Assembly: GCA_036381155.1 (NCBI GenBank)
Contig: DASVDJ010000159.1
Span: 19,291-83,290, forward strand
Source: Vicinamibacterales bacterium
GTDB lineage: Bacteria > Acidobacteriota > Vicinamibacteria > Vicinamibacterales > JAENWD01
Direction: 5' to 3'
DNA length: 64,000 nt
A program made the translations under genes and the position numbers. This document shows positions 49,601 through 64,000 of this stretch, piece by piece (the first letter of the stretch is position 1; each line of letters opens with the position of its first letter). The notes below the pieces were generated by a model, which worked only from the letters and a program-made list of their open reading frames with translations, had not been told where the DNA came from and ran no database searches.

Positions 49601-50059
49601 CACACGATCCAGAGCGGGCTGCCGTTCAACGTCACCTACGCCGACGCGGGCGCGGATCGGGACGTCGGCCCCAACCGGCCGAACCTGATTGGCGATCCGG
49701 AGGGCCCGAAGACGCGTGACCAGTGGTTCAACACGGCGCCCATCGGCTCCCCGAACAGCGCCTTCGCGCGGCCGGCGCCGGGCACGTTCGGCAACCTCGA
49801 ACGCAACGCGCTGCGCGGGCCGTACTACCGGCGCACCGACGCGTCGCTGTTCAAGCACTTCCGGCTTGGCGGCAACCGCGATCTGGAGGTCCGCATCGAG
49901 GCCGTGAACCTGTTCAACGTCGTCAATCTCGGCAACCCGGACAGCGAGATCGGCACGGAGAACAGCCCGCGGCCGAACGCCGGGCGTATCAGCTCCACGG
50001 CGTACGGCGGGCTTGACCCGCAGCGGAACCTGCAGTTCGCGGTGAAGTTCAGGTTCTGA
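46637..50059 (+). CDS. TonB-dependent receptor with N-terminal carboxypeptidase-regulatory-like domain
   Basis: Trimmed to MLRFCAW at 46637. GSISGTVVDESGAVLPGVTITIT..TNEAGFF is CarboxypepD_reg-like. The C-terminus is ...LQFAVKFRF, a terminal aromatic. Confidence 0.85.
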   Translation: MLRFCAWNCVRIAVAALAVLWCSAPPAAAQAVYGSISGTVVDESGAVLPGVTITITSLERKTVDTVVTNEAGFFLRERLLPGTYEVKAELASFKTAIVPEVVVRVDTQTPLSFRLEVGAIAETVEVTGGSPLLKTDRADVATTFDERQLTDLPVVDRNFTKFILLTPGTQQLGWQHAASENPQGSVQTMVNGQHFSGTGYQLDGTENRDPILGIIVINPNLDAIGESKITSQNYDAEFGQAIAGVVSVQTKSGSNEFRGSAFEFWQGDKFQARNPFSQALPDPLTGRFIPETSKHQFGGTFGGPISRNRTFFFGAYQGQRQTQGGSRLLTVPTAAARTGDLSAYGIDIFDPASGARPEDRVQFPGNVIPQNRLSPQALALLNLIPLPNAPGVENGTRENYIASGSETFDGNQFDVRIDHRLSADANLFGRYSLADYLRDGPTAFGQGGGPEFVSLGGVSDVRNQSLAFGYDRTLSPTLLADFRFGWFRYDVDVLPFDFGTTPAADAGIPGLNLDTTFTSGLPAIFVEGIGGFNAGSGLGVNRCNCPLDQDEQQWQVVGNVTKLWGNHTFKFGVDVRRAYNLRVPSDAHRSGELTFNTDRTRGPSGGGMGLATFLLGDVTRLARYVSTSTNARERQWRHFYYAQDTWRPTPRLTLNYGLRLDVINPQTVNEPGNGGWLDLTTGEILVAGVGGIDLAGNVENRLNWAPRLGASFNLDERTVIRAGYGRSYDIGVFGSLFGHSVTQNLPVLAFQELRGAENFDAAFNLAQGPSAPVFPEVPGNGRIRLPNGINTRALPTKQRPPAVDAFNVTLQRQLTDTMAVEIGYVGNRGRRVFAGDGPEVNANEPTLEGFAQGVPRNERLPFFARSDGTINRTPYLGLGGGFGWTQGIGYFCNCANNWYDSLQTRLDKRFSNGYAVQVNYTWQRARGEGGSYFFWDRTLERGVQDWDRTHILNATLVWELPFGRDKRWGADWSTAMDLVLGGWQFNATHTIQSGLPFNVTYADAGADRDVGPNRPNLIGDPEGPKTRDQWFNTAPIGSPNSAFARPAPGTFGNLERNALRGPYYRRTDASLFKHFRLGGNRDLEVRIEAVNLFNVVNLGNPDSEIGTENSPRPNAGRISSTAYGGLDPQRNLQFAVKFRF

Positions 50060-50064
50060 CGCAG

Positions 50065-50114
50065 GGCCGAACTCCAGTTCGGCCGAACCCGTAGGGCCGA
50101 ACTTCAGTTCGGCC
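50065..50114. repeat. two REP-like hairpins after the receptor gene
   Basis: ggccgaactccagttcggcc at 50065-50084 and ggccgaacttcagttcggcc at 50095-50114. Confidence 0.75.
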
Positions 50115-50204
50115 AGACCTTGGCCGACGGCGGACAGAGAACCGACGCATGCAGGGCGGGCGCTATCAGCCCCGCCCGCATGCGCCCGCTTCCTCTGCCA
50201 TCCC

Positions 50205-50234
50205 CTTGCAGACCCCCGCTGTACCCGGTATACT
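50205..50234 (+). promoter_or_regulatory. candidate promoter of the tRNA gene
   Basis: TTGCAG (50205-50210), 18-nt spacer, TATACT (50229-50234), 12 nt before the tRNA 5' end. Confidence 0.5.
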
Positions 50235-50245
50235 GAATCGGTTGA

Positions 50246-51912
<1,667 letters not shown>

Positions 51913-51916
<4 letters not shown>

Positions 51917-52110
51917 CGTAGGGTCTCGTCGAGTTTGCCGCCCTGCTCGGCCAGTGCTCGCTCGAACGTCTCCCGGGCAGCTTCACGAGCCAGGATCTGA
52001 ACAAGTGTCCGGAGCATCTCCGTCTCTCGATCGAGCGCCTCGTCCTTCCGGTCACGACGACCGGCTCCGACGAGGCTCGCTGCACGATCTGGCTTCTCCC
52101 GACGAGTCAT
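51913..52110 (-). CDS. small helical hypothetical protein (possible directionality factor)
   Basis: 65 aa. ATGA overlap with the recombinase start. Weak RBS. Confidence 0.4.
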
Positions 52111-52135
52111 AATAGCGCCGATCCGTTACCTGCGC

Positions 52136-52555
52136 TCAGCCCTCGCGCAACTCCTTGGCCACACAACGTGAGTTTCGCGGGGCGCGGAACACATCTCGAA
52201 CACCCAGGGAGGGCAAGTCCAGCACCTTAGCGTCCGCCAAGTTCGGCTCGTGCCGCACTGCCTGCCAACCGGCGTGCATGAGGCCTGGTGGGAGCACCTC
52301 AATGGCATCTCCGCCCGCAGCGGGCAAGGAAGTTGTCACGGCCGCTGTTGCTTGCCGTGGAAACCGATGCACCTCGCGTCTGCGTGGGTCGAGGCTCGTT
52401 CCGGTCTTCGTCGTCGCGTGCTGGTTCCTTGACGAGACGTGTAGCCGTCTGGCAGCGCTCACCTGTGCTCGGTTTCCGTCGGGAGCGGGGGCACGTCCGT
52501 CGCCGATCATTCGCGTAACGTCGGCAGCATTGTCGATTGCTCCTTCGTAGTCCAC
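52136..52555 (-). CDS. hypothetical protein
   Basis: Track ORF 52136..52714. I prefer the in-frame GTG at 52555, preceded by AGGAGGAGA. The ATG at 52579 is immediately flanked by the pyrimidine arm of a hairpin. Composition is unremarkable, so coding status is uncertain. Confidence 0.3.
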   Translation of the reverse strand: MDYEGAIDNAADVTRMIGDGRAPAPDGNRAQVSAARRLHVSSRNQHATTKTGTSLDPRRREVHRFPRQATAAVTTSLPAAGGDAIEVLPPGLMHAGWQAVRHEPNLADAKVLDLPSLGVRDVFRAPRNSRCVAKELREG

Positions 52556-52579
52556 CGGTCTCCTCCTCTTGCGCGGCAT

Positions 52580-52620
52580 CTTCGAGGGAAGGCTCGATCG
52601 CTGCCCGCCTTCCCTCGAAG
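52580..52620 (-). promoter_or_regulatory. perfect 13-bp-stem hairpin 12 nt after SpoVG-like gene 1
   Basis: CTTCGAGGGAAGG (52580-52592), 15-nt loop, CCTTCCCTCGAAG (52608-52620). Confidence 0.7.
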
Positions 52621-52631
52621 GACGCCAGTGT

Positions 52632-52934
52632 TCAGGTGTCCGATTGACCGCTCTCCGCGGCGTAGGCCTGCAGCACGAGCTGACGGAGGCGGTCCTCGGC
52701 GCTCCGGTCGTCAACGGCGCGGATCAGTGAAAAGTTGCGCCGCTCTCCGTTCACCATGAACGGGCGCGCCGGGAAGGTCACATTGCGGCCCGATCCGTTG
52801 CGCTGTCGCCAGATGGCGAAGCCGAGCAGCTTCAGACCATCGAGCTCTCCGCCGATGAACTGCAGCTCGGCATCCGCCAGCTTGTCCTGCGGTGTGTTCT
52901 TCTCGTTGCGAACGATATTGACCGTGATCGTCAT
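52632..52934 (-). CDS. SpoVG-like small nucleic-acid-binding protein, paralog 1 (assignment by pattern only)
   Basis: 100 aa with an AAGGAG RBS. The layout KLADAELQF..GLKLLGFAIW..GRNVTFPARPF..GERRNFSLIR..LRQLVLQAY parallels SpoVG (beta-strands, then the P-containing loop, then the helix). Paralogous to 56387..56710. Confidence 0.5.
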   Translation of the reverse strand: MTITVNIVRNEKNTPQDKLADAELQFIGGELDGLKLLGFAIWRQRNGSGRNVTFPARPFMVNGERRNFSLIRAVDDRSAEDRLRQLVLQAYAAESGQSDT

Positions 52935-52976
52935 GGGGTCTGCTCCTTACATGCGCTCGCATCGGCGAGCCGGGCG

Positions 52977-53402
52977 TTATGCGTGTGCGGCGTGCGCCTG
53001 CTCCTCTTCGAGCGGTGCGCCGAGCCGCTGCCACAGCCAGTTCTGCAAGGTGTTCAAGCCGACGAGCACCGGATCCGCGGGTACGAACAGGTGCCCGTGC
53101 TCGCGGCAGCGCCGCTTCTGCCACGAACGTTCCGTGGCGTCGACGAGAATCAGCCGCGCCTTCGTCCTGGCGCGACACGCATCGAAGACGATCTCGTCGA
53201 GGGCCAGTCCCGACACGTCCGCGAGCGGCGCGGTGTAGAGCGTCATCGTGGACGGAGCATCGAGGGCGGCCGGTGCGGTCGTGATGTGGGCGTAATAGAG
53301 GCGTGTGTGCCGGCCGATCGTCACCCCGATGCTGGGTGTGATCGACGTCGTGTTCATCGCTGGTCCTTCCTTTCGAATCGAGCCCAACGTCCAAGCGGTC
53401 AT
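52977..53402 (-). CDS. hypothetical protein
   Basis: 141 aa from the ATG at 53402, which makes an ATGA overlap with the upstream small ORF. Alternatively 126 aa from the ATG at 53357, which has an AAGGAAGGA RBS. Confidence 0.5.
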   Translation of the reverse strand: MTAWTLGSIRKEGPAMNTTSITPSIGVTIGRHTRLYYAHITTAPAALDAPSTMTLYTAPLADVSGLALDEIVFDACRARTKARLILVDATERSWQKRRCREHGHLFVPADPVLVGLNTLQNWLWQRLGAPLEEEQAHAAHA

Positions 53403-53581
53403 GAACCTGCCGGGCCATCACGTAATTGCGAGAAGCCGGGCTCGACCGAGGGCCTCGTCAAGGGCGCCAGCCGCGCGGAGCGCGGTCGGAGCCAGGCGAT
53501 GCAGGCGGAGATCCTTGACGAGCCCGAGGCGAGCCGGACAATCGGACCCGTGATGGCCCATAGCAGACAGCCGTCCGTCAT
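53399..53581 (-). CDS. possible 60-aa ORF
   Basis: GAAGGAG lies 7 nt upstream of the ATG at 53581. Its stop overlaps the ATG at 53402. No recognisable features. Confidence 0.25.
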   Translation of the reverse strand: MTDGCLLWAITGPIVRLASGSSRISACIAWLRPRSARLAPLTRPSVEPGFSQLRDGPAGS

Positions 53582-53826
53582 CGGGCGGTTCTCCTTCGCA
53601 GGGAGCGAGACCCGCGCGCACACGAGCCTCGCCCCCGGTTGTCCATGCGAAGCACGATGCTTCGCGCGGGCCTCAACGGTGTTCTGGTTCTCAGAGAGCC
53701 GCTGGGCTTGATGGCGCAAGCGGCGATGCAGGCGATCTCGGTCGCCTCAGGAACGGGCGGGGTTGAACCCGCACCCGCACATCTGGTGGGCGCCGCGGGG
53801 CTGTGCCCGCACGGCGGATGACCCGG

Positions 53827-54933
53827 TCAGTGGACCGTGGTCAGGAGTCGGCTGGCGGCGCGGTCGAGTGCGAATCGGTGATCCTGCCACGGGGTGCGCT
53901 GACTGAGTCGCGTTAACCCTTGCACATACCCCCAGACGGATCGGGGATTCGTCTCGTACTGCTCGGCAAGCGCGTAGGCGTGTGCAGCCTGCTTGCGCGA
54001 GAGCTCCACTCGCGCGGTAACGGCATCGAGCACCGCGTCTCGCGTCGGCCCCAGCTCGTGGGTCGTGGCCCGGAGGAGCAGCGTCCGATCGTCGGCGGCG
54101 CCTGTGTCGAGCGCCGAACGCACCGCCTCCAGTGAGTCGGTCCACGCCGCGTGAATGGACCCACCTACGTGCCGGCGCCGAAAGCTGGCGACGTGCCGGA
54201 AGCCCCAGATGATGTTGTTGCCGCACACGGCGCGGTAGAGAAACACATCCAGGGTCAGGGCGGCGGCGCCCACGTCGCTGTTCCGGATGATGAACCCGCG
54301 GAACAACCCTCCGTGCGACCGGTCGGTGGGATCGTCGAGATCACGGTTGCCGTCGATCAGGAAGAGAAACATGTCTCGATCTCCCAGATACGCGCCGGAG
54401 GGCACGAGCTCGGCCCCGTACACGCCATCCTTGTACCCGAGCGGCAGGTGCCACGCCGGATGAGCGGCCATGAGGTCGAGCACCCGGGCGGCCAGGTCGT
54501 CGTGGTGCACCCGCGCGTACCTCGGCGAGGTGATCGCGTGGATGGTCCACGGCGCTTCGCGATCCGCGAGGACTTGATGCGCCTCGCGGTGTGGCCGCTC
54601 GAGGCCCACGTTGATCGCGCTCGACGCGATCGGCGCGGGCAGTGTCCGGAGGTACTTCGGCGGCGCGCCGACAATCGCGGCAAGCTGCTCGAAGCTCCAG
54701 TGCGTCAGCGGAGCGGTGCGACCCGACGCCTCTCGCACGACGAGGTCGTCGTCTGTTTCCGCCGCTGTTCGAACCTGGTGAGTCTCGATGGTGCGCTCTT
54801 CGGTGCGTGCCCGCCGGACGCGAGCCGCCTCGTAGAGCGCCGAGACGCTGGCGAACCGTTCGTCGGGCGGCCGCGTGGCCCATTCCCGATGCGCGGTATA
54901 CGCCGTGACCGCAGATACACCAGTCCTCTGCAT
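53827..54933 (-). CDS. DUF932-like (phage/plasmid-like) protein
   Basis: 368 aa with an AAAGGAG RBS. GFIIRNSDVGAAALTLDVFLYRAVCGNNIIWG resembles the NSEVG...C.N motif I associate with DUF932. Confidence 0.6.
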   Translation of the reverse strand: MQRTGVSAVTAYTAHREWATRPPDERFASVSALYEAARVRRARTEERTIETHQVRTAAETDDDLVVREASGRTAPLTHWSFEQLAAIVGAPPKYLRTLPAPIASSAINVGLERPHREAHQVLADREAPWTIHAITSPRYARVHHDDLAARVLDLMAAHPAWHLPLGYKDGVYGAELVPSGAYLGDRDMFLFLIDGNRDLDDPTDRSHGGLFRGFIIRNSDVGAAALTLDVFLYRAVCGNNIIWGFRHVASFRRRHVGGSIHAAWTDSLEAVRSALDTGAADDRTLLLRATTHELGPTRDAVLDAVTARVELSRKQAAHAYALAEQYETNPRSVWGYVQGLTRLSQRTPWQDHRFALDRAASRLLTTVH

Positions 54934-55056
54934 ACAGTGCTCCTTTCTGTGCCCTGAGGGCGATCGAGTGAGGAAGCATCTCCACGTCGCTGGACGATGC
55001 GTGGAGGGGTGGCCGGGATGGCCACAGGCGAGAAAACTGGAGACGCTACGGTGGGC

Positions 55057-56235
55057 TCATGCCGGCTCCTTTCCGTTTTCGAGGGTCGGCTGTCCGTCGG
55101 CCTCGTGATTCGATGCCAGGTATTCGCGCCGTAACAGCACGGGACCGATCTTCCTGGTCACGACGAGGGTGAGCTGTGTCAGACGCGGGACGCCGGGATC
55201 CCGTCGCCAGATGAACTCGCGGAGGTGCAGGGCCACGTGGGCGTCCGGCACGAGGGCCTTGACCTGCTGCAGCAACGACCATTGGTCCTTCGTCATCGTT
55301 CGCACCGGATGGCCGAAGACCACGAAATCCCGTTCGGTCACGTTGGATCGCTTCCGACGGAGCCATTGCTCGACGTGCGCGCGCATGCGCTCGACACCAT
55401 CATGCGTGTAGCGCGGCCGGTCCGCGACCGCGCGGAACGCCTGGTCGGCCATGGCCTCCTTGATCTCCGACGGAGGGAGCAGCCTGGCCGCCAGCCGCGC
55501 CTGCTGGTCCGGTGTACCGTGCTTGTTGATCCACGCGGTCATCGCCTGCCACCGTTCATCGCGCAGGCGCACGTGCTCAGCGCGCTCGCGGGCACGCCGT
55601 TCGCGTGCCGCGTTGACATCGGCCCGAAACCGTCGCAGGGCCTCGCGCGGCACGTCACGGGCGGGCCCAGTGTCGAGCTTCCGGTCGAAGCGGAGGTGCC
55701 CGTACGGGGTCGCAAGATAACAGCGTCTGGGCGTCGGCGAGGGGTGAGCGAGCGCCCGCTGCGTCGGATCGGCGAGAAAGGCCAGAGCGATCTCGGTGCG
55801 ACGAACCCGATCGGTGTCCGCGCGCTGGTCGCGCGCGATCGTCCGCTGCGCATGGTACGCGCGCTCGAGCTGATGATTGCGTGCGGCCAGCCGCAGCAGC
55901 TCGTCGATCGTGGGCGGCTCGTCGTAGATCGGCGCCCTGTCGATGCAGATGACGCGCTGATCCGCGTCGAGCTCGTATCGGGGGCGGAGCTTGAGGCGTG
56001 CCACGCCGTGGCCGTTGACGGTGACAAGGTGCAGGCGATTCGCCGGGACCTCGAACGTGATGCGCTGCACCGCGCGTCCGTCGCCGCCGGCAAGCAGCGA
56101 GGCCTTCCGGCCCGCCTCGGACAGGTGGTACACGGCGGTCACGGTCAATGCCTGAGCCGTCGCTGGACCGGGCAGTGTCGTCGGTGTGTTGACCTGCTCT
56201 GAATGAACCAGCACGGGGCGGGCCAAGGATTCCAT
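55057..56235 (-). CDS. hypothetical protein, 392 aa
   Basis: Long ORF co-directional with its neighbours. Arg-rich helical central region. No family recognised. Confidence 0.6.
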   Translation of the reverse strand: MESLARPVLVHSEQVNTPTTLPGPATAQALTVTAVYHLSEAGRKASLLAGGDGRAVQRITFEVPANRLHLVTVNGHGVARLKLRPRYELDADQRVICIDRAPIYDEPPTIDELLRLAARNHQLERAYHAQRTIARDQRADTDRVRRTEIALAFLADPTQRALAHPSPTPRRCYLATPYGHLRFDRKLDTGPARDVPREALRRFRADVNAARERRARERAEHVRLRDERWQAMTAWINKHGTPDQQARLAARLLPPSEIKEAMADQAFRAVADRPRYTHDGVERMRAHVEQWLRRKRSNVTERDFVVFGHPVRTMTKDQWSLLQQVKALVPDAHVALHLREFIWRRDPGVPRLTQLTLVVTRKIGPVLLRREYLASNHEADGQPTLENGKEPA

Positions 56236-56300
56236 GACGCGATCCTTTCCGGTCAGCGGCTTTGCTGAAACCTCACGTGACGGAAACGGGGGCTGTGCCC

Positions 56301-56325
56301 CCTCGAGGCCCTGAGGGCGTCGAGG
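56301..56325 (-). promoter_or_regulatory. two-tier stem-loop, copy b
   Basis: Minus-sense CCUCG-AC-GCCC-UCA-GGGC-CU-CGAGG. Confidence 0.6.
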
Positions 56326-56346
56326 GGGAGACAGCCGGGCGGTCGG

Positions 56347-56371
56347 GGTCGAGGGCCTGAGGCCGACGACC
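56347..56371 (-). promoter_or_regulatory. two-tier stem-loop, copy c
   Basis: Minus-sense GGUCG-UC-GGCC-UCA-GGCC-CU-CGACC. Confidence 0.6.
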
Positions 56372-56386
56372 GGTCACCCTGAGGAT

Positions 56387-56710
56387 TCACTCGGTCTGCA
56401 TCTCGACGCGGCTGAACGCGTCGAGGATGTAGTCCCGAATGGCCTCCTGCGCGCTGGCATCCCCGTTGGCGGGACGGAGCAGCGCGAAGCTCCGGCGTTC
56501 TCCGTTGACGGAGTACTGCCGGGCCGGGAACGTGACGTTCCTCCCTCCGGTCCGTCGTTCCCAGATGGCGAAGCCGATCAGCTTGAGCCCGCTCAGCGGG
56601 CCGGCGCCGGCTTCGAAGGTCAGTTCCGCATCGGCCAGCTTCCCCGGAGGGTTGCCGGACGTGTTGGGAACGACCCGTACGGACACGAGTTCCGTCTTGC
56701 CTTTGGTCAT
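56387..56710 (-). CDS. SpoVG-like small nucleic-acid-binding protein, paralog 2 (assignment by pattern only)
   Basis: Track ORF trimmed to MTKGKTELVSV at 56710 with a GGAGGA RBS. KLADAELTF..GLKLIGFAIW..GRNVTFPARQY..GERRSFALLR aligns residue for residue with 52632..52934. Confidence 0.55.
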   Translation of the reverse strand: MTKGKTELVSVRVVPNTSGNPPGKLADAELTFEAGAGPLSGLKLIGFAIWERRTGGRNVTFPARQYSVNGERRSFALLRPANGDASAQEAIRDYILDAFSRVEMQTE

Positions 56711-56727
56711 GGAGTCCTCCATTTGGA

Positions 56728-56752
56728 CGCCGAGGGCCTGAGACCGACGGCG
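56728..56752 (-). promoter_or_regulatory. two-tier stem-loop, copy d, in the 5' leader of SpoVG-like gene 2
   Basis: Minus-sense CGCCG-UC-GGUC-UCA-GGCC-CU-CGGCG. The inner stem keeps pairing through a G.U wobble only on the minus strand. Confidence 0.6.
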
Positions 56753-56880
56753 TAGGCGAAGGTTCCGGCGGATCCTGGGGATGCCGCGGAACGGGGTGGG
56801 ACGCACGGCTCTGGGAGCGCGTGCGTGCTGACGGGCAGAGCCGTCTGTATACCTATAAGAACCCGGTCACGACGGCAAAA

Positions 56881-58382
56881 CTAACGGGAGGTTACCAGAC
56901 GAACGCGACGCTGCTCAGTCAGCGATTGCCGATAGAAGGAGCGGGCCAGCGCACACGCTCGCGTCAACTTCGAGCGCTGCCAGATCGACCTCGTGTCGAG
57001 GGTCCCGGAGGACAGGCTCCTGCGTGATGCCTGCGCGATCGGCGCGATGCTTCGACGATGAGGGCAGTCAGCGGCGACAGGCCGGCCGTGAGCGCACCCA
57101 GCCGTCAACGCTGATGACCACGTCAGCCGGAATCTGCCTGCGGGAACGAGTGACAGAAGCGCAGGGCCAGCGAGAAACGCCGCCGCCGCACCAAGCGCGC
57201 CGCCGGCGAGCGAGAGCACGGCGCCTTCTGCGAGGAACTGGCGAACGAGCCGTGCGCGGCTCGCGCCCAGGGCCAGCCGCGTGGCGATCTCGTGCCGGCG
57301 CGAGATGGCCCGCATCAGCAGCAGGTTGGCTACGTTCGCGCAGCCGATCAAGAGGACGAGCGCCACGGCACCGCCGACCACGAGCAGCGGCAGGCGGACA
57401 TCGCTCAACATGGCGTCGTGCAGCAAGGTCACCCGCGCGATGAGATCGCGGGGCCGGTCGGGATTTGGCGGCAGGTTCCGTATCCAGGTTTCCAGGTCGG
57501 CCTGAGCCTGTTCGCGTGTGATGCCTGGTTTCACCCGTCCGATCACCGGCCTGATGACCCCGAGGCCTGGGCCGGGGCGGATCGCGTGCGGGATCCAATA
57601 CTCGGCGTTGGCAGGATACGAGAAGCCGCGCGGAAGAATGCCGACGATGCAATAGAGCGATCCGTTGAGCGTAATCGTCGTGTTGACGATGCGCGGATCG
57701 CCGCCGAACTGCCGCTGCCAGAGGCTGTCGGAGATCAGCACCGTGTTCTATCCCGGCTGTTCGTCTTCGGCGCCGAACGTGCGCCCCATCGCGGCGCCGA
57801 CGCCGAGAACCCGGAAGAAGTCGACGGTGACCGCGGCGCCCGTGAGTTGTGTGGCCGCGCCCGCACCCGCCAATGTCGATTCTGCCTGGGAGATCATGGC
57901 GATCGACTCGAAGGTACGGTTGGCGTCGCGGAAGTCCACGTAGTAGCCTTGCTCGCACATGCCCGGGCAGAGCCAGGCTGGTCTAAGACTCTAGACTAGG
58001 CGACGTGTACGAGATTGCGAACAGCCGGTCGGCGTCGGGGCAGGGAAGCGGCCGGAGGAGAACGCCATGCACGACGGTGAACATGGCGGTTGTTGCGCCG
58101 ATGCCGCGGGCCAGCGCGGCCGTCGTGAACGCCGGGCTGCGCCGCATCGCGCGTACCGCGTGACGCACGTCCCGCGCGAGATCATCGAGCCACGGCAGCC
58201 CGCGCTGATCGCGCAGCGCCTCCATCGCCGCGAGCTGTCCGCCCGCCTTAGTGAGTGCGGGGCGGCCCGCTTCGGCGGCCCATCTCCGCATGCAGTCGCG
58301 GCTACTCGGCCAGATCTTCGTCGCTCCGTCGCGGGCGTACCACCCCGAGGAGGCGAGCGCTCCATTCACGCAGCCAGCGCAT
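56881..58382 (-). pseudogene. decayed, 3'-truncated ADOP-type (FtsX/MacB-like) ABC permease
   Basis: Collinear fragments lie in different frames. MRWLREWSARLLG..DEDLAE is the C-terminal end of track ORF 58302..58709. LARDVRHAVRAMRRSPAFT...LLRPLPCPDADRL is in 57983..58369. MacB_PCD-like fragments are in 57748..57960 and 56881..57741. The FtsX helices are broken by further frameshifts near 57060-57140. The second half of the duplicated permease is absent. Confidence 0.75.
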
Positions 58383-58613
58383 GTCGGGTCCCTGCGCGTT
58401 GCCCCTTAACGGTGCATGGAAGATGCGCGTCTTCCCAGTCACGGCGGCGCAGCAGTTTATTAACCGTGCCAATGGAGCGTCCGCCAACTGTATCTGAATG
58501 CCAAATAGAAGCGGGAGTCGGTTCCTTGGCCACGCCGGCGTCTCCGGATGTGGGACCGGAGGTGACCCGAAGCGCGCGTTGACAGCCATTCCGGCCGTAC
58601 CGACTCGCGAAAG

Positions 58614-58694
58614 CCCCTTGCAACGACCCGCGAACGCCCCTTGCACCGACACCCGGAAGCTGCCTTGCACCAGTCGTGAACCCCGTGTACAAGG
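58614..58694 (+). repeat. three direct CCTTGCAMC repeats plus an inverted copy upstream of the 804-aa gene
   Basis: ccccttgcaacgac at 58614-58627, ccccttgcaccgac at 58637-58650, tgccttgcaccagt at 58661-58674 (23-24 nt spacing), then gtgtacaagg at 58685-58694. Confidence 0.6.
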
Positions 58695-58903
58695 TCGCGA
58701 GATGGCCATATGCTCGTCGTTGCTGGCGCTCCCCGCAGGCCTCCTGCTGGCAGCGCTGTGCTGGCGGGAGGGCAGGGCATTCGGTCAACCACGAGCGGAA
58801 AATCCCGGGCGCCTCAAGGGTTCGCTCGCTCCGCTCGCTGGCGGCGCGCGCTTGCTCGGCCCGGCGCGCTCCCATCGTACTGGCATTTGCCGGGGATCGA
58901 CGT

Positions 58904-61318
58904 ATGACCGTGAATAGCCTGCGCAAACGCGCATGGCACTTCGGCTTTAGAGTCCGGTTCGGCGTCCGCAAGCTTGTGACTCTTGCGCGCAAAGTGATCC
59001 CGAGTTTCGATGTTGCCCTTCGGGCTGCGCTGTTCGTCGGCACGGCACTTGGTCTTGGGGCATTCATCAACGCCGCCGCCGACCTCAGTCGTCTCACAGC
59101 GGAAACGTTGATCAATGTGCTGATCGCCATGGGGACGATGTTCGGCGGTGTGCTTGCAATCGTGTTTGCATTATCGAGCTTCATGCAACAGAACGCGGCA
59201 GATCTGTACTCATCGCAGTTCTACGAGGTGTACGCTCGGGATTGGCGAGAGAAACTGATCTTCAGTGCGATTGCCGTACTGACGGTTCTTTCCTTCGCGC
59301 TCGCCATTTTTCAGGACACCGCGATCGTCCCGTTGCGACCGTCTTTCTTGGTGTACGTGATCCTGCTTGTAACTGCTGCCGTTTTCGCGCTCGTCGATTG
59401 GCAGTACAAGCTGGTCACCAAGAAGATCAACCCGCTGATCGCCCTGGCGTTTCTCGAACGACAGTGCATGAAGTCTCTTGAGTCCGCACACGATCTCGCT
59501 AAACACCTCGCGTCCTGGCTGCGGATCAGCAATGAACAGCTCACCGAAGAGCAAGCATTGGCTGTCAGTTACAGCCGATTCGTCGCACCGTATCTGACAC
59601 ACGTAGATCGTCAGCTTGATCATCTCACCGAGATTTCGCTCCGGCTGGCCGCGAAAGGCGAGCTGCTGGCGACGCAGAGAGGGCTAGCGAGCGCGCACAA
59701 CGTCTTAGCAAAGTACCTACAATTCCGAAAGGATTCGTCGCTTGCGATACCTGCGGGTCCGTACTTGATGGCGGTTGAAAGCGATAGCCAATGGTTCTTG
59801 GCAAGAACGTTCCAGCGAATTAACACAGCCGGCGAAATGTTGATGGCTCAACGTCAGTCCGCATCGGTTGTTTTCCTCATGGATCTGTACGCTTCGTTGG
59901 CTACGTATGCGAAAGAGGTGCAATTCCTCAATCGCCCCGGTGAAAACCCGATTATCGACCAACTGAGAGGTTACATGAGCGGCCTCTTGGACGCCGCGAT
60001 TCGAGTCGATGATGTGGAGGTCTGTTTTCGAAGCGTCGCTGTGTCACGAGCGATTGGGACTGCGGCGGTTGAGCGCAAGCTCCACTCAGCCACGCGGTGT
60101 GCAGTCTACGGCGACCTTACGAAGGTCGCGATGTGGGCGATCGCAAGCAAGAAGCCCGTGTTTATCGAACACTGCACGGATGCCATGGTTCAGTTGATCG
60201 GCAAGTCAATCAATGACGATGGTTCTGGGCTCGACACCGAGCTGGCCGAAGCGTTCGATCGGCTCACCACGATAACGAGCACGATGTATACGGCTGTATC
60301 CGCCGGACTGGTGCCCAGCGCTATCGACACTCAAATCATGGTTGGTAAGTGTTACGGGCAATTGGCGGCAGTACTCGCGGCCGTGGTTGATCGATACGAA
60401 CGCCTGATAGAGGGACACGAGAAACGAGCGCTGGGGTGGAACCTCGCCGCGTGCTTCAAAGCACTATACCGAAGCCTTCGAGAGATGTCGGAGGTGCTGA
60501 AGAACTGCGACGCTCCGGTCGTGTTCAATATTGCATCCCTGATCGAGGAAATCCTCAAGATGTTGGTTCGCCTCTCGACCGACACGAAGGGGCTACGTGA
60601 GCGCCACGAGTTTGAAAAGCAGTTGAGCTGGTACGTCCACCTGCCGGGTTGGTTTGTAGAGCATGCCAGCAACGTCACGTTAACAGATGCGTTCGACACA
60701 CTGGCCGACATCGGTCCAAAGGTTGGACTCCAGCTTCTGCACCGCAACGCTCCGTCGGACTCCATTGTGAAATGCGCCCAGGCAGCGTTCTCCATAACGA
60801 AACAGATGCTAGCGAAGCTTAAAGGTGGATACGCGTACGCTGAGCCACGTCACATGCTGACGGTGTGCTACTTGGGCATCGTCGCATTGAAACAGGGAGC
60901 CATCGGAAGTGGTGTTGTCCAGGCAATCCTATCGATGGTTCGAGAGTTCGAGGAACTCTACCGCAAGAAGTACTTCAGCACGTTTACACCACCGGCCGGC
61001 AATTACATGGACCCGAGGCCGCAGCAACTGATGGTGGAGGTGCTTCGCTGGAGAAGCGATGTCATTCGTGAGCGATACAACATCCCGCCACTGTTGGACC
61101 GCTCGCGCGACATCGTGCGCCAGATGGTCGACGTTGCTGACATTGATCGGTTCATTTTTGAGGTGTGGCGCATGGTGCCATCAGACAGTCCGATCAAGGC
61201 TGAATTGACGGACCGGCAGCGCCGCCACGTTCTGATGCTGAGATTGTTGCGTCTCTTGAGTGCTGAACTGCAACGGCGGCAGCCCGTAAATGCACCTGCA
61301 CAGACAGACGACGCTTAA
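58904..61318 (+). CDS. orphan 804-aa protein: four N-terminal TM helices plus a long helical cytoplasmic region; no family recognised
   Basis: Track ORF trimmed to MTVNSLRKRAW at 58904 with GGGGA upstream. TM segments: ALFVGTALGLGAFINAAA, LINVLIAMGTMFGGVLAIVFAL, LIFSAIAVLTVLSFALAIF, FLVYVILLVTAAVFALV. Spot GC counts are 48-62% (about mid-50s) against about 70% for the host. It is the only plus-strand gene in the island. Confidence 0.75.
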   Translation: MTVNSLRKRAWHFGFRVRFGVRKLVTLARKVIPSFDVALRAALFVGTALGLGAFINAAADLSRLTAETLINVLIAMGTMFGGVLAIVFALSSFMQQNAADLYSSQFYEVYARDWREKLIFSAIAVLTVLSFALAIFQDTAIVPLRPSFLVYVILLVTAAVFALVDWQYKLVTKKINPLIALAFLERQCMKSLESAHDLAKHLASWLRISNEQLTEEQALAVSYSRFVAPYLTHVDRQLDHLTEISLRLAAKGELLATQRGLASAHNVLAKYLQFRKDSSLAIPAGPYLMAVESDSQWFLARTFQRINTAGEMLMAQRQSASVVFLMDLYASLATYAKEVQFLNRPGENPIIDQLRGYMSGLLDAAIRVDDVEVCFRSVAVSRAIGTAAVERKLHSATRCAVYGDLTKVAMWAIASKKPVFIEHCTDAMVQLIGKSINDDGSGLDTELAEAFDRLTTITSTMYTAVSAGLVPSAIDTQIMVGKCYGQLAAVLAAVVDRYERLIEGHEKRALGWNLAACFKALYRSLREMSEVLKNCDAPVVFNIASLIEEILKMLVRLSTDTKGLRERHEFEKQLSWYVHLPGWFVEHASNVTLTDAFDTLADIGPKVGLQLLHRNAPSDSIVKCAQAAFSITKQMLAKLKGGYAYAEPRHMLTVCYLGIVALKQGAIGSGVVQAILSMVREFEELYRKKYFSTFTPPAGNYMDPRPQQLMVEVLRWRSDVIRERYNIPPLLDRSRDIVRQMVDVADIDRFIFEVWRMVPSDSPIKAELTDRQRRHVLMLRLLRLLSAELQRRQPVNAPAQTDDA

Positions 61319-61586
61319 TTAAACTAAGCTAATCAATTATCGCGAAGTCGTAGCTGAACTTAGAGATGTGTGGGCGCATCAATCGCCTCCTACGGGTGCG
61401 GCGCGCGGAATCCGCTCGCCTCACCGAAGCATCGCAGAGCGCGAAGGCTCGCCTCCTTCCACGGATGAGCTTAGCGTAAACTGATCCCGGCCGCCCAGAG
61501 GGGACGATGCCCCACCGCCTCCGGCGCTGGGTTTTCGACGAGCCGCCGAGAATGGTCGTCGCAGCGGGTGATCTTGGAAACGACCC

Positions 61587-62543
61587 TCAGGTGAGTAGAC
61601 CGCCCCGCGCGAGTCCGCCGATTGGTTCGCGGCCATAGCGTCTCGCCCGCCGCAGCTTGTCCAGTAGTTCCCGCTCGGACCATGGCGGCTGGCATCGAGT
61701 GTTCCAGTCGCTGATCGCACGGAGCGCCTGATCATCTCCAAGCGCGAACCCGCGCACGAGCCGACAGCACACGCGGAACGTGTGGGCGTCGCCGTGCTGA
61801 CCGGCGATGGCCGGCGGCACGCGCTCGAGATATCGGCGCGCCCGGTCCACGGTACTGCGTTCATCGACTCGAAGAGAGGTAGCACGCGCCGGCGCCGGCG
61901 CCCGCACGACTGGCGGCGTCGCGTCGCACCGGGCAGCGTCGCGGGACACTTGCACCGCGGGAAAATCTGGCGGGGTGTACACGCGGTCCAGACGTCCGTA
62001 CTCGACGGTCACGAGGTGAGCGGACGCGTACTTGTGGTTGTTGAAGCCCGGCAGCCGGGTGGTCTGCGTCGCCGGCGTCGCGGCAGGATCCGTATCGAGT
62101 TCGCTGGCGAGCCTTTTCTGGAGCGCCTCGATGCAGTGAGGTTCGAAGGCGGTCACCCGCCAGAAGATGTGAACGCGGTTCGGCGATGAATGCAGGATGT
62201 ACGACGGCTCTGGCAGATCGGATCGGGCGGCGATGCGCGCGAGGACGCCTGGGCCATCACGATCCGCCTCCAGGAACGCATGGCGGATCGCGCCCACGGA
62301 GTCGCGCGTCCGCGTCCGCTTCCATGGCGCAATTGCGTTCACGCCGCAGTACACGTTGAACTTCTGCGAGTTCTTGAATCGGAGCCACGCCTGGAAGCGC
62401 GGATGCATCACCCAGTCGAGCGGCCCGACGCGCTGGGTGACCTGTCCCGTCTCGTACGACTTCAGGAAGATCGCGACCCAATCGTCGGGTTCGAACGCGG
62501 TCTGAAGGAATCTGAGCGGCGCCTCAGGGTCGATGGCAGCCAA
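61587..62543 (-). CDS. RepB-family DNA primase-like protein with PriCT-like C-terminal domain
   Basis: NVYCGVN...IRHAFLEADRD...PEPSYILHSSPNRVHIFWRV...TRLPGFNNHK follows the RepB-primase pattern. The C-terminal GDAHTFRVCCRLVRGFALGDDQALRAISDWNTRCQPPWSEREL is primase-C-terminal-like. Confidence 0.6.
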   Translation of the reverse strand: MAAIDPEAPLRFLQTAFEPDDWVAIFLKSYETGQVTQRVGPLDWVMHPRFQAWLRFKNSQKFNVYCGVNAIAPWKRTRTRDSVGAIRHAFLEADRDGPGVLARIAARSDLPEPSYILHSSPNRVHIFWRVTAFEPHCIEALQKRLASELDTDPAATPATQTTRLPGFNNHKYASAHLVTVEYGRLDRVYTPPDFPAVQVSRDAARCDATPPVVRAPAPARATSLRVDERSTVDRARRYLERVPPAIAGQHGDAHTFRVCCRLVRGFALGDDQALRAISDWNTRCQPPWSERELLDKLRRARRYGREPIGGLARGGLLT

Positions 62544-62556
62544 GGTTCGATCCCCG

Positions 62557-63039
62557 CTATTGCTTCGTCAGCACGACCTGACCGGCGAACACCGCCGCGT
62601 TGCAGTCGGTGCCCGTGAAGTCGGCTTCAATCCGGGTGGCCTGCGCAGTGCCACTGCTCCCGAACGTCCCCGTGCAACCGCGCGGTGACGAGAACGTTCC
62701 CTGCGTGCTGATCCCCGTAGGCGGGGTGTTGCCTGGCGAGATCGCCGTCGTGGCAGTAGTCGTCATGTTCAGCCAGGGATGTTCCGACCGGATCGTGCTG
62801 TTGAACGACTGACGGTTCGAGTTGGGCATCACCTCGAACGTCCACGTGATCGGCCCGCTCGTGGGCGGAGCCGCACCTGGGGCATGCGGGTTGACCTGGA
62901 TTGTTACCGTCCCCCGCCACGTACCCGAGAGGAAGGACTGCTCCGACGGTGACGTCGGCGACCCCTCCCGCCCACACGCGGCAAGAGCCATCAAAGCGAT
63001 CAGCGGCCACCACGCGGCCCGACGTCTCCAGTGCGTCAT
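62557..63039 (-). CDS. lipoprotein of unknown function
   Basis: ATG at 63039 with a GGAGGTGA RBS; an upstream GTG at 63051 is also possible. Lipobox is LMALAAC. Confidence 0.6.
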   Translation of the reverse strand: MTHWRRRAAWWPLIALMALAACGREGSPTSPSEQSFLSGTWRGTVTIQVNPHAPGAAPPTSGPITWTFEVMPNSNRQSFNSTIRSEHPWLNMTTTATTAISPGNTPPTGISTQGTFSSPRGCTGTFGSSGTAQATRIEADFTGTDCNAAVFAGQVVLTKQ

Positions 63040-63047
63040 CGTCGGAC

Positions 63048-64000
63048 TCACCTCCGAAACGAGCGCTCATCCCGGCGCGCGTCTGCCGCCGCGCCGTCCA
63101 GGGTCTCTAGCTCGAAGCGTTCCGACGCAGGATCGTACCCGCGAATCCCGACAACTTCCGTCACCTTCCGAAGCCCATCCACACGTGCAATGTGCACGAC
63201 GAGGTGGATCGCCAGCGAGATGGCTTCGCGGACGCTGCGATGCGGCAGGCCCACGTTCGCCGTGAGTACGCAGTGGGCGAGGCGTGTGAGCGCCTGCTCC
63301 GCTGAGTTGGCGTGGATGGTGCTCAAGCTGCCGAGGTGGCCGGTGTTCAACGCCTGGAGCAGGTCGAACGCTTCGGGACCGCGCACCTCGCCGACAAGAA
63401 TCCGATCCGGGCGGTGACGTAGCGTGGCACGGACGAGATCGGAAATCGTCACGGCCGGCACTGGGGTCTCCTGGCCGAGTGGGATCTGAGCACGTCGGGC
63501 CTCGAACCGGACGAGGTTCGGCTTGTCGATGAGAATCTCCGAGGTCTCCTCGATGAGCACGATGCGATCGCCCTCAGGAATCTTCGCGGCGAGCGCGTTG
63601 AGCAGTGTCGTCTTGCCGGTACCGGTCCCTCCTGAGATGAGGATGTTCCTTCGGTCGTCGACCGCACGCCGGAGCCGTGCGGCGACGTCCTCACTGAGCG
63701 TGCCGACTGAAACCAGCTCGTCCAGCGTGTACCGGTGCGCGAACTTCCGCACGGTCAGCGTCGGTCCGTCGACGGAGCAGGGCGGAAACATTGCCGCCAC
63801 TCGTGACCCGTCTTCGAGGCGCGCGTCCAGCATCGGCTGGTGATCGGAGATCTCGTCCCCGCATGCTCTCGCGATGTTCTTGATGGCCACGGTCAGGTTC
63901 CGGACCTCCAGCGTCCGATCGGGCACCGCCTCCACGAGGCCGTGCCGCTCGACGAACACCCGCGTGCCGCCTCCGTTCACCATCACCTCGGTGACGCTCG
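63048..64000 (-). CDS. VirB11/CpaF(TadA)-type secretion ATPase, 5' end probably outside window
   Basis: Walker A is GGTGTGKTT. RILVGEVRGPEAFDLLQALNTGHLGSLSTIHANS is present. The frame is still open upstream of the ATG at 63986 (..SVTEVMVNGG). Confidence 0.85.
   Translation of the reverse strand, partial: SVTEVMVNGGGTRVFVERHGLVEAVPDRTLEVRNLTVAIKNIARACGDEISDHQPMLDARLEDGSRVAAMFPPCSVDGPTLTVRKFAHRYTLDELVSVGTLSEDVAARLRRAVDDRRNILISGGTGTGKTTLLNALAAKIPEGDRIVLIEETSEILIDKPNLVRFEARRAQIPLGQETPVPAVTISDLVRATLRHRPDRILVGEVRGPEAFDLLQALNTGHLGSLSTIHANSAEQALTRLAHCVLTANVGLPHRSVREAISLAIHLVVHIARVDGLRKVTEVVGIRGYDPASERFELETLDGAAADARRDERSFRR

Follow-up and report, generated by a model that had tools for sequence, protein, structure and literature searches.

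A stretch of 64,000 nucleotides (nt) from a Vicinamibacterales bacterium (assembly GCA_036381155.1, contig DASVDJ010000159.1, positions 19,291 to 83,290; hereafter the window) was analyzed around the gene of an 804-residue (aa) protein carried on a mobile island. The product is a predicted inner-membrane protein. Its family is widespread, has not been named and keeps one architecture throughout, in which a basic N-terminal tail is followed by a conserved module of four transmembrane (TM) helices and a solenoid of ∼600 aa. Judged from composition and gene context, the gene is horizontally acquired, stand-alone cargo in the variable part of a conjugative-type island. Context and architecture suggest that the protein, as a one-component factor, may defend the cell against phages or other invading DNA, a reading that was given a probability of roughly 0.4. 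Counted in its support were the foreign composition of the gene, its stand-alone organisation, the conservation of the TM module, and the restriction-modification (RM), abortive-infection (Abi) and recombinase genes found around relatives.

The gene, its product and its family

The start codon was placed at the ATG at 58904 (Table 1) because the 65%-identical homologue P0002 begins with the same methionine and the same first residues. A longer, GTG-started version from 58676 exists as a mechanical listing of open reading frames (ORFs) only. With an intact frame and a homologue-supported start, the ORF called in the first-pass annotation is real.

The GC content of the gene is 0.558, compared with 0.663 in the other island DNA and 0.711 in the chromosomal part (1-50245). 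Relative to 2415-nt windows outside the gene across the 64 kb this corresponds to z = -6.3; the 2415-nt window with the lowest GC of the entire 64 kb begins at 58951, and 200-nt windows inside the gene range from 0.50 to 0.585. A full GC profile placed the drop between ∼58850-58900 and ∼61350, equivalent to the gene plus roughly 30 nt, so that the borders of the discontinuity are the borders of the gene. GC at third codon positions (GC3) paralleled the overall gap, with 0.67 for the gene, 0.76-0.84 for the other island genes (except a short 192-aa ORF at 0.69) and 0.94-0.95 for two chromosomal genes; GC at the first and second codon positions of the gene is likewise lower. The low GC reported at first pass from spot counts was confirmed in this way, and the AT-rich tail noted behind the gene was found (Table 1). 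In a GC3-based ORF screen running from the tRNA at 50246 to the end of the window all other plausible island genes fell on the minus strand, leaving the 804-aa gene as the sole plus-strand gene of the island, also as first described.

A structure was predicted with AlphaFold2 utilizing an alignment of 84 sequences. The model (pLDDT 92.6, pTM 0.83) is all helical save for a small hairpin near residues 281-293. Its N-terminal helices span residues 3-58, 66-101, 114-139 and 146-175, within which hydropathy and charges predict TM helices at ∼36-58, 66-93, 114-139 and 146-170, connected by tiny periplasmic loops of about 8 and 7 residues. Residues 1-35 contain nine Lys/Arg and no Asp/Glu and are therefore predicted to be cytoplasmic. 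The sequence following the TM helices is rich in Leu (12.4%), Ala (11.9%) and Arg (7.2%). Hydropathy, composition and model agree on the architecture proposed at first pass, namely four N-terminal TM helices followed by ∼600 aa of helical, Leu/Ala/Arg-rich sequence.

The whole model was compared with known structures utilizing Foldseek, which returned generic alpha-solenoids only (karyopherins, cohesin SA2 and designed toroids) at a query TM-score of at most 0.27; a search against BFVD gave generic solenoids and nothing further. A profile search of the PDB with the alignment matched designed helical repeats alone (E ≥ 1.4e-3). Neither the 804-aa protein nor 53 relatives matched a HEAT, ARM or TPR repeat family in Pfam, and no specific structural match to these repeats was obtained. 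The TM module was also modelled separately as residues 1-215 (pLDDT 90). Its best Foldseek match in the PDB had E = 0.41, and no known four-TM channel or pore, for example of the bestrophin, CALHM or MotA/ZorA type, was recovered.

An exhaustive HMMER scan over 1.84 billion representatives, with clusters defined at 50% identity, located 345 clusters of relatives at E ≤ 1e-3, of which 113 also pass E ≤ 1e-30; the gene is not the orphan that it was first taken to be. Family members are nearly all full-length (750-830 aa) with a single matched stretch, and full-length homologues reach down to about 20% identity yet keep the shared motifs. A word-indexed search returned nine relatives, to which the same search with a profile added one weak match. 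The nearest homologue is from an Acidobacteriota metagenome-assembled genome (MAG). Hosts are scattered over at least eight phyla, among them Acidobacteriota, Nitrospirota, Atribacterota, Parcubacteria, Saccharibacteria, Elusimicrobiota and Delta- and Gammaproteobacteria, and all ten of the 90%-identity clusters that were checked are singletons. Searches with tblastn found no copy among 72,556 plasmids or 50,697 phages, and two family loci only were found in IMG/VR (2.9 million contigs). Members that bear a name are called 'hypothetical protein', and no description of this architecture was found in the literature. Two damaged copies were observed: one is frameshifted after about residue 135 (L020:9728-12231, in the complete Elusimicrobiota genome CP096137), and the other, P0006 (L008:10001-11536), is truncated to 511 aa and lies in a region rich in insertion sequences (IS) beside a terminase-like gene.

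The 804-aa protein has no Pfam match at E ≤ 1, no credible NCBIfam match and no PDB sequence match, nor was it matched by PADLOC models, in agreement with the first-pass statement that it holds no recognisable motif. Pfam and PADLOC scans were extended to the 53 relatives, 14 of which match Pfam DUF2254 (PF10011; best E = 2.1e-9). Four of these matches were inspected in detail; they score 17-21 bits, below the gathering cut-off of 28.8 bits, and span profile positions ∼4-189 of 368, covering the membrane half of DUF2254 but not its C-terminal domain. The DUF2254-type identity raised at first pass as a possible refutation is borne out as weak similarity of the TM half in these 14 relatives, but not as a match above the cut-off where the scores were detailed. 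Literature mentioning DUF2254 holds knotted topology or feature lists only, with no assigned function and no reported defence link. As DUF2254 is without a defined function, the match does not refute a defence-type role.

The family's best-conserved block (Table 1) has the consensus GxMxGGxLAIVFxLSxFxxQNAADLYSSxxFExY..DWxEK, and over residues 81-120 identity is 88% in close and 60% in distant relatives. A mere anchor would not be expected to be the best-conserved part of the protein, and the TM module therefore probably does more than hold the protein in the membrane. At the other extreme, identity over residues 421-520 is 44-49% in close and 14-21% in distant relatives, compared with 60-75% and 30-47% elsewhere. 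Recognition surfaces would be expected to show such variability inside a repeat domain, and this block is therefore a candidate for one. Conserved polar positions of the solenoid (R275, S293-D294-S295, N348-P349, E372, R526, E647-P648-R649, K663 and D746) form no recognised catalytic motif.

Gene neighbourhoods of the relatives

Family loci were collected from species-representative genomes, IMG/VR, JGI metagenomes and exact look-ups; the sequences around P0007, P0008 and P0009 were too short to be informative. An all-against-all BLAST of the neighbours found no conserved partner gene over 32 loci. A conserved multi-gene system was rejected on this basis, and the family gene is regarded as stand-alone because no neighbour is shared. 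The gene is poorer in GC than its ±10 kb flanks at 29 of 29 loci, by a mean of 5 points.

At four loci (L019, L031, L027 and L030) the family gene lies directly 3′ of an RM gene. In L019:2952-12160 and L031:4704-12295 a type I RM operon ends with hsdR and is followed by the family gene 2-21 nt on, on the same strand; the hsdR product of L019 matches PDB 3H1T (E = 1.8e-136). These two loci are from unrelated MAGs, and their homologues belong to different branches of the family tree. In L027:1004-6918 and L030:63-4080 an MmeI-like methylase-nuclease gene is located directly upstream on the same strand, at a distance of 27-52 nt, whilst in L009:3251-12457 the family gene is divergent from an MmeI-like gene. 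A SNF2-PLD helicase accompanies the MmeI-like gene in both L009 and L027. Since the RM-linked loci sit in different branches of the distance tree, the association with RM arose more than once.

Large serine recombinases were found within 10 kb at 7 of the 32 loci, and directly adjacent to the family gene at L021:12341-13675, L038:2604-3620 and L039:8385-9755; in L021 and L038 the ends of recombinase and family gene overlap convergently. The gene order hints that such loci, one of which is in Saccharibacteria, are candidate minimal mobile units of recombinase plus cargo. Tyrosine integrases and HTH_17 genes were found near the homologue at L005, L009, L031 and L037. The neighbours in L002 encode AbiEii/DUF6088, HTH and M78, DUF4238 and Schlafen-like proteins; a recent report describes prokaryotic Schlafens as effectors of defence (PMC13056530).

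Among the matches listed in pooled scans of 175 neighbours are N6_Mtase, Eco57I, C5 methylase, ResIII, PDDEXK, Methylase_S, AbiEii, RhuM, Prok-E2_D, MADS mad2 and PDC-S05, together with housekeeping genes. Neighbour counts are raw and do not represent a background-corrected defence score. At many of the 32 loci RM, Abi or recombinase genes occur near the family gene, so that relatives recur in mobile or putative defence contexts as had been supposed for the 804-aa gene itself. L024 was considered as a clear prophage and rejected, as the similarity of one neighbour to tape-measure proteins is partial and therefore ambiguous; the neighbour examined in L025 had no phage match.

The host island and other features

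The left junction of the island lies inside a tRNA-Met gene, as the last codons of the large serine recombinase ORF overlap the 3′ 44 nt of the tRNA (Table 1). GC falls from ∼0.70 to 0.65 at this point. Rfam models over 50000-64000 detected tRNA only. A DUF932 protein is encoded between the recombinase and the 804-aa gene, and genes for a RepB-type primase and a VirB11-type ATPase follow. From its gene content the island is an integrative element of conjugative type, extending past the right end of the window. The tRNA-Met junction and these four genes agree with the first-pass description of the 804-aa gene as compositionally foreign cargo of a mobile island. To the left of the island the chromosome encodes an FG-GAP/ASPIC protein and a CarboxypepD_reg TonB-dependent-like barrel; proteins of both kinds are common in Acidobacteriota.

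The suggestion that the gene is a secondary insertion into the island was upheld in part. Its GC borders coincide with the gene, and DNA similarity to the three nearest relatives is confined to 59017-61198, within the coding sequence (CDS). L002, the contig of homologue P0003, is a related element with another cargo layout: L002:12-130 corresponds to window 63277-63395 (part of the VirB11-type gene) and L002:590-895 to window 53030-53335 (306 nt, a small ORF), with its homologue at a different position of the element amid other defence-type cargo. It is therefore likely on these comparisons that the 804-aa gene was acquired separately and entered the island in its variable region, but a search for insertion scars around the gene gave no convincing flanking direct repeats, target-site duplication or IS ends.

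Beside the gene lies a truncated permease of MacB/FtsX type (56881-57741, minus strand) with a missing N-terminus, matching MacB_PCD from profile position 124 onward. It is probably a gene remnant and suggests an earlier rearrangement. The overlapping ORF at 57068-57958 was considered as its frameshifted N-terminal half and rejected, having no PDB match.

A scan for promoters and terminators found nothing above chance at the ends of the 804-aa gene. Three tandem 23-nt repeats are located ∼235 nt upstream of the ATG (Table 1); exact copies of their core occur nowhere else in the window, and they may be a candidate operator, regulatory or iteron-like site. Downstream, a minus-strand ORF of 16 codons, encoding MRPHISKFSYDFAIID before its stop codon, is present at 61329-61391 (ATG 61379) inside the AT-rich tail and is convergent with the 804-aa gene. 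A perfect AGGAGG (Shine-Dalgarno sequence) a few nt upstream of this ATG forms one arm of a weak 25-nt inverted repeat, 58332-58356 / 61383-61407, which is 76% complementary and brackets the 804-aa gene. At the left junction of the island, a 16-nt tandem repeat (50063-50114) is located immediately upstream of tRNA-Met.

Table 1. Coordinates of the 804-aa gene, its predicted parts and selected island features in the window
Feature	Position	Strand	Basis
Complete CDS with stop codon, encoding the 804-aa protein	58904..61318	+	ORF with ATG start, full-length homologues from Met1, AlphaFold2
Residues 1-35, basic N-terminal tail, predicted cytoplasmic, poorly conserved	58904..59008	+	Charge count, conservation
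Residues 36-170, predicted four-TM module, N-in/C-in; remote relative of the DUF2254 membrane half	59009..59413	+	Hydropathy, charges, AlphaFold2, DUF2254 matches in relatives
Residues 76-117, most conserved family block: Gly-rich end of TM2 and predicted cytoplasmic juxtamembrane loop	59129..59254	+	Alignment consensus
Residues 177-792, predicted cytoplasmic all-alpha solenoid, ∼25 helices	59432..61279	+	AlphaFold2 secondary structure, Foldseek, PDB profile search
Residues 421-520, most variable internal block of the solenoid	60164..60463	+	Identity profile
AT-rich tail TTAATTAAACTAAGCTAATCAATTAT, includes the stop codon; right edge of the low-GC patch	61316-61341	+	Sequence
Three tandem 23-nt repeats, consensus CGACACGCGAAAGCCCCTTGCAA	58601..58669	+	Tandem Repeats Finder score 80, repeat search
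tRNA-Met, left island junction	50246..50322	+	ARAGORN; Rfam, 67 bits
Large serine recombinase of the island	50279..51916	-	Pfam Resolvase, Recombinase and Zn_ribbon_recom
RepB-type primase, backbone gene adjoining the 804-aa gene	61587..62543	-	Pfam RepB_primase, E = 7.6e-15
VirB11/T2SSE-type secretion ATPase, conjugation-type backbone gene	63048..63986	-	Pfam T2SSE, E = 1.3e-43

Function of the 804-aa protein

As a one-component defence factor the protein would utilize its solenoid as a sensor, the variable middle part binding an invader-derived protein or another signal. From there the signal would reach the Gly-rich TM bundle by way of the strongly conserved juxtamembrane segment; the bundle would probably be oligomeric and would open or disrupt the membrane, so that the infected cell no longer supported replication (abortive infection). 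By analogy with known systems this would be defence-island-type cargo of a sensor plus membrane-effector design from an undescribed family. A more far-reaching version, in which family members constitute a new class of one-protein membrane immune receptor-effectors whose solenoid recognises invader proteins and gates an oligomeric DUF2254-like pore, spread as single-gene cassettes behind RM operons or beside serine recombinases through many uncultured phyla including the Candidate Phyla Radiation, is put forward tentatively and is considered doubtful; if correct, it would offer the large DUF2254 superfamily its first hint of a function.

In DSR2 the HEAT domain is the sensor. The 804-aa protein resembles this Sir2-plus-HEAT protein in being one large protein with HEAT-like repeats that could bind a phage protein and switch on a putative N-terminal effector, and it may likewise be defence-island cargo. 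DSR2 has been described as a defence made up of one protein: it contains a HEAT-repeat domain, and a phage tail tube protein triggers its NADase activity (PMC11263360). The putative effector of the 804-aa protein is instead the four-TM module, and the two share no sequence or specific fold similarity, the Foldseek matches given above being to generic repeats. Membrane depolarisation, the proposed output, would be shared with the membrane effectors of CBASS (cyclic oligonucleotide-based antiphage signalling systems), Pycsar (pyrimidine cyclase system for antiphage resistance) and type III CRISPR CARF systems and with RexB and Kiwa KwaA, small TM bundles that depolarise the membrane on activation and abort infection; for the TM effectors of type III CRISPR CARF systems, depolarisation is described in 10.1101/2025.11.13.688252. 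These effectors are triggered by nucleotide signals or by partners from the same operon, whereas the 804-aa family has no conserved partner, the 804-aa protein has no PADLOC match and its TM module has no structural match. DUF2254 proteins share the N-terminal four-TM module, but their C-terminal domain is replaced by the ∼600-aa alpha-solenoid in the 804-aa family.

The overall plan also recalls the eukaryotic LRRC8/VRAC (volume-regulated anion channel) proteins of about 810 aa, in which a four-helix pore module is combined with a large solenoid of cytoplasmic repeats that controls its gating. The resemblance is one of analogy only: there is no homology, LRRC8 has leucine-rich (beta/alpha) repeats and large extracellular loops, and it was absent from the Foldseek matches.

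Several points weigh against the proposed role in defence. The link of the family to defence is one of guilt by association with its neighbours, and pore formation is an assumption because no known channel matched the structure of the TM module. None of the 5027 models of PADLOC-DB v2.0.0 matched the 804-aa protein at E ≤ 1, and the 53 relatives gave three isolated single-member matches with no consistent family. Neighbours at some loci are housekeeping genes (CTP synthase, RF-1 and FtsH), and amino-acid composition, as opposed to recent transfer, may account in part for the reduced GC seen in each host, though the gene in the window has the same gap at GC3.

The lack of consistent PADLOC matches and the housekeeping neighbours would suit cargo without a defence function, such as a channel, a transporter, a sensor of stress, or a selfish gene serving the mobile element through addiction or toxicity, that accumulates in variable regions because insertions are tolerated there. 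The sole detectable family link, to the widespread membrane family DUF2254, has no connection to defence in the literature that mentions it. This explanation is rather unlikely; against it stand the patchy distribution, in which the close clusters checked are all singletons, and the recurrence of RM, Abi and recombinase adjacency in separate branches of the tree; the frameshifted and truncated copies at two loci are of a kind typical of dispensable accessory genes. A spurious ORF or a decaying pseudogene without a product can be set aside almost completely. A GC3 of 0.67 is low for the genome and gives weaker codon-bias support for coding than in neighbouring genes, but the 804 codons are intact, and the full-length homologues, their shared conserved motifs and the very confident AlphaFold2 model refute this explanation.

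Superinfection or entry exclusion, by which an inner-membrane protein would block the entry of phage or conjugative DNA without killing and its solenoid would bind the incoming machinery, is improbable. The mobile and defence context fits exclusion as well as it fits abortive infection, and the 804-aa gene, encoding an inner-membrane protein with a big cytoplasmic domain, is on an island with a VirB11-type ATPase, as is a homologue on the related element L002. These are, however, the only per-gene annotated loci with a VirB11-type gene, and no conjugation family is among the top 25 of the pooled neighbour scans, so that linkage to a type IV secretion system is not constant. The two short periplasmic loops would offer little surface to incoming machinery, and to our knowledge known exclusion proteins are much smaller. 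An accessory role in RM, either as a membrane-tethered scaffold or regulator that positions or controls RM enzymes where DNA enters or as a latent, PrrC-like back-up effector upon RM inhibition, is quite improbable. Genes of the PrrC/RloC type sit inside or at the end of type I RM loci, a position also occupied by the family genes at the hsd operon ends of L019 and L031; the close same-strand spacing there and behind the MmeI-like genes of L027 and L030 is consistent with such a role, and RM and methylase families are among the commonest matches of the neighbour scan. Against it, the immediate neighbours at most loci, the window included, are not RM genes, with RM linkage in a minority of loci, and the partners are of differing types (type I or MmeI-like), contrary to a specific physical partnership. 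The 804-aa family also differs from PrrC/RloC in having no anticodon-nuclease or ABC-ATPase domain.

Many comparable candidates exist. For the 804-aa protein, a model of high confidence in which conserved and variable regions are clearly separated eases the design of mutagenesis and of experiments with escaper phages. If the protein is not defensive, the apparent orphan would still have been placed in a sizeable and clearly delimited family of accessory membrane proteins. If it is a defence factor, it would add a compact, self-contained sensor-plus-membrane-effector design from a family found almost only in uncultured lineages, whose defence repertoires are poorly charted, and it would provide a testable handle on membrane modules of the DUF2254 type, which have no assigned function.

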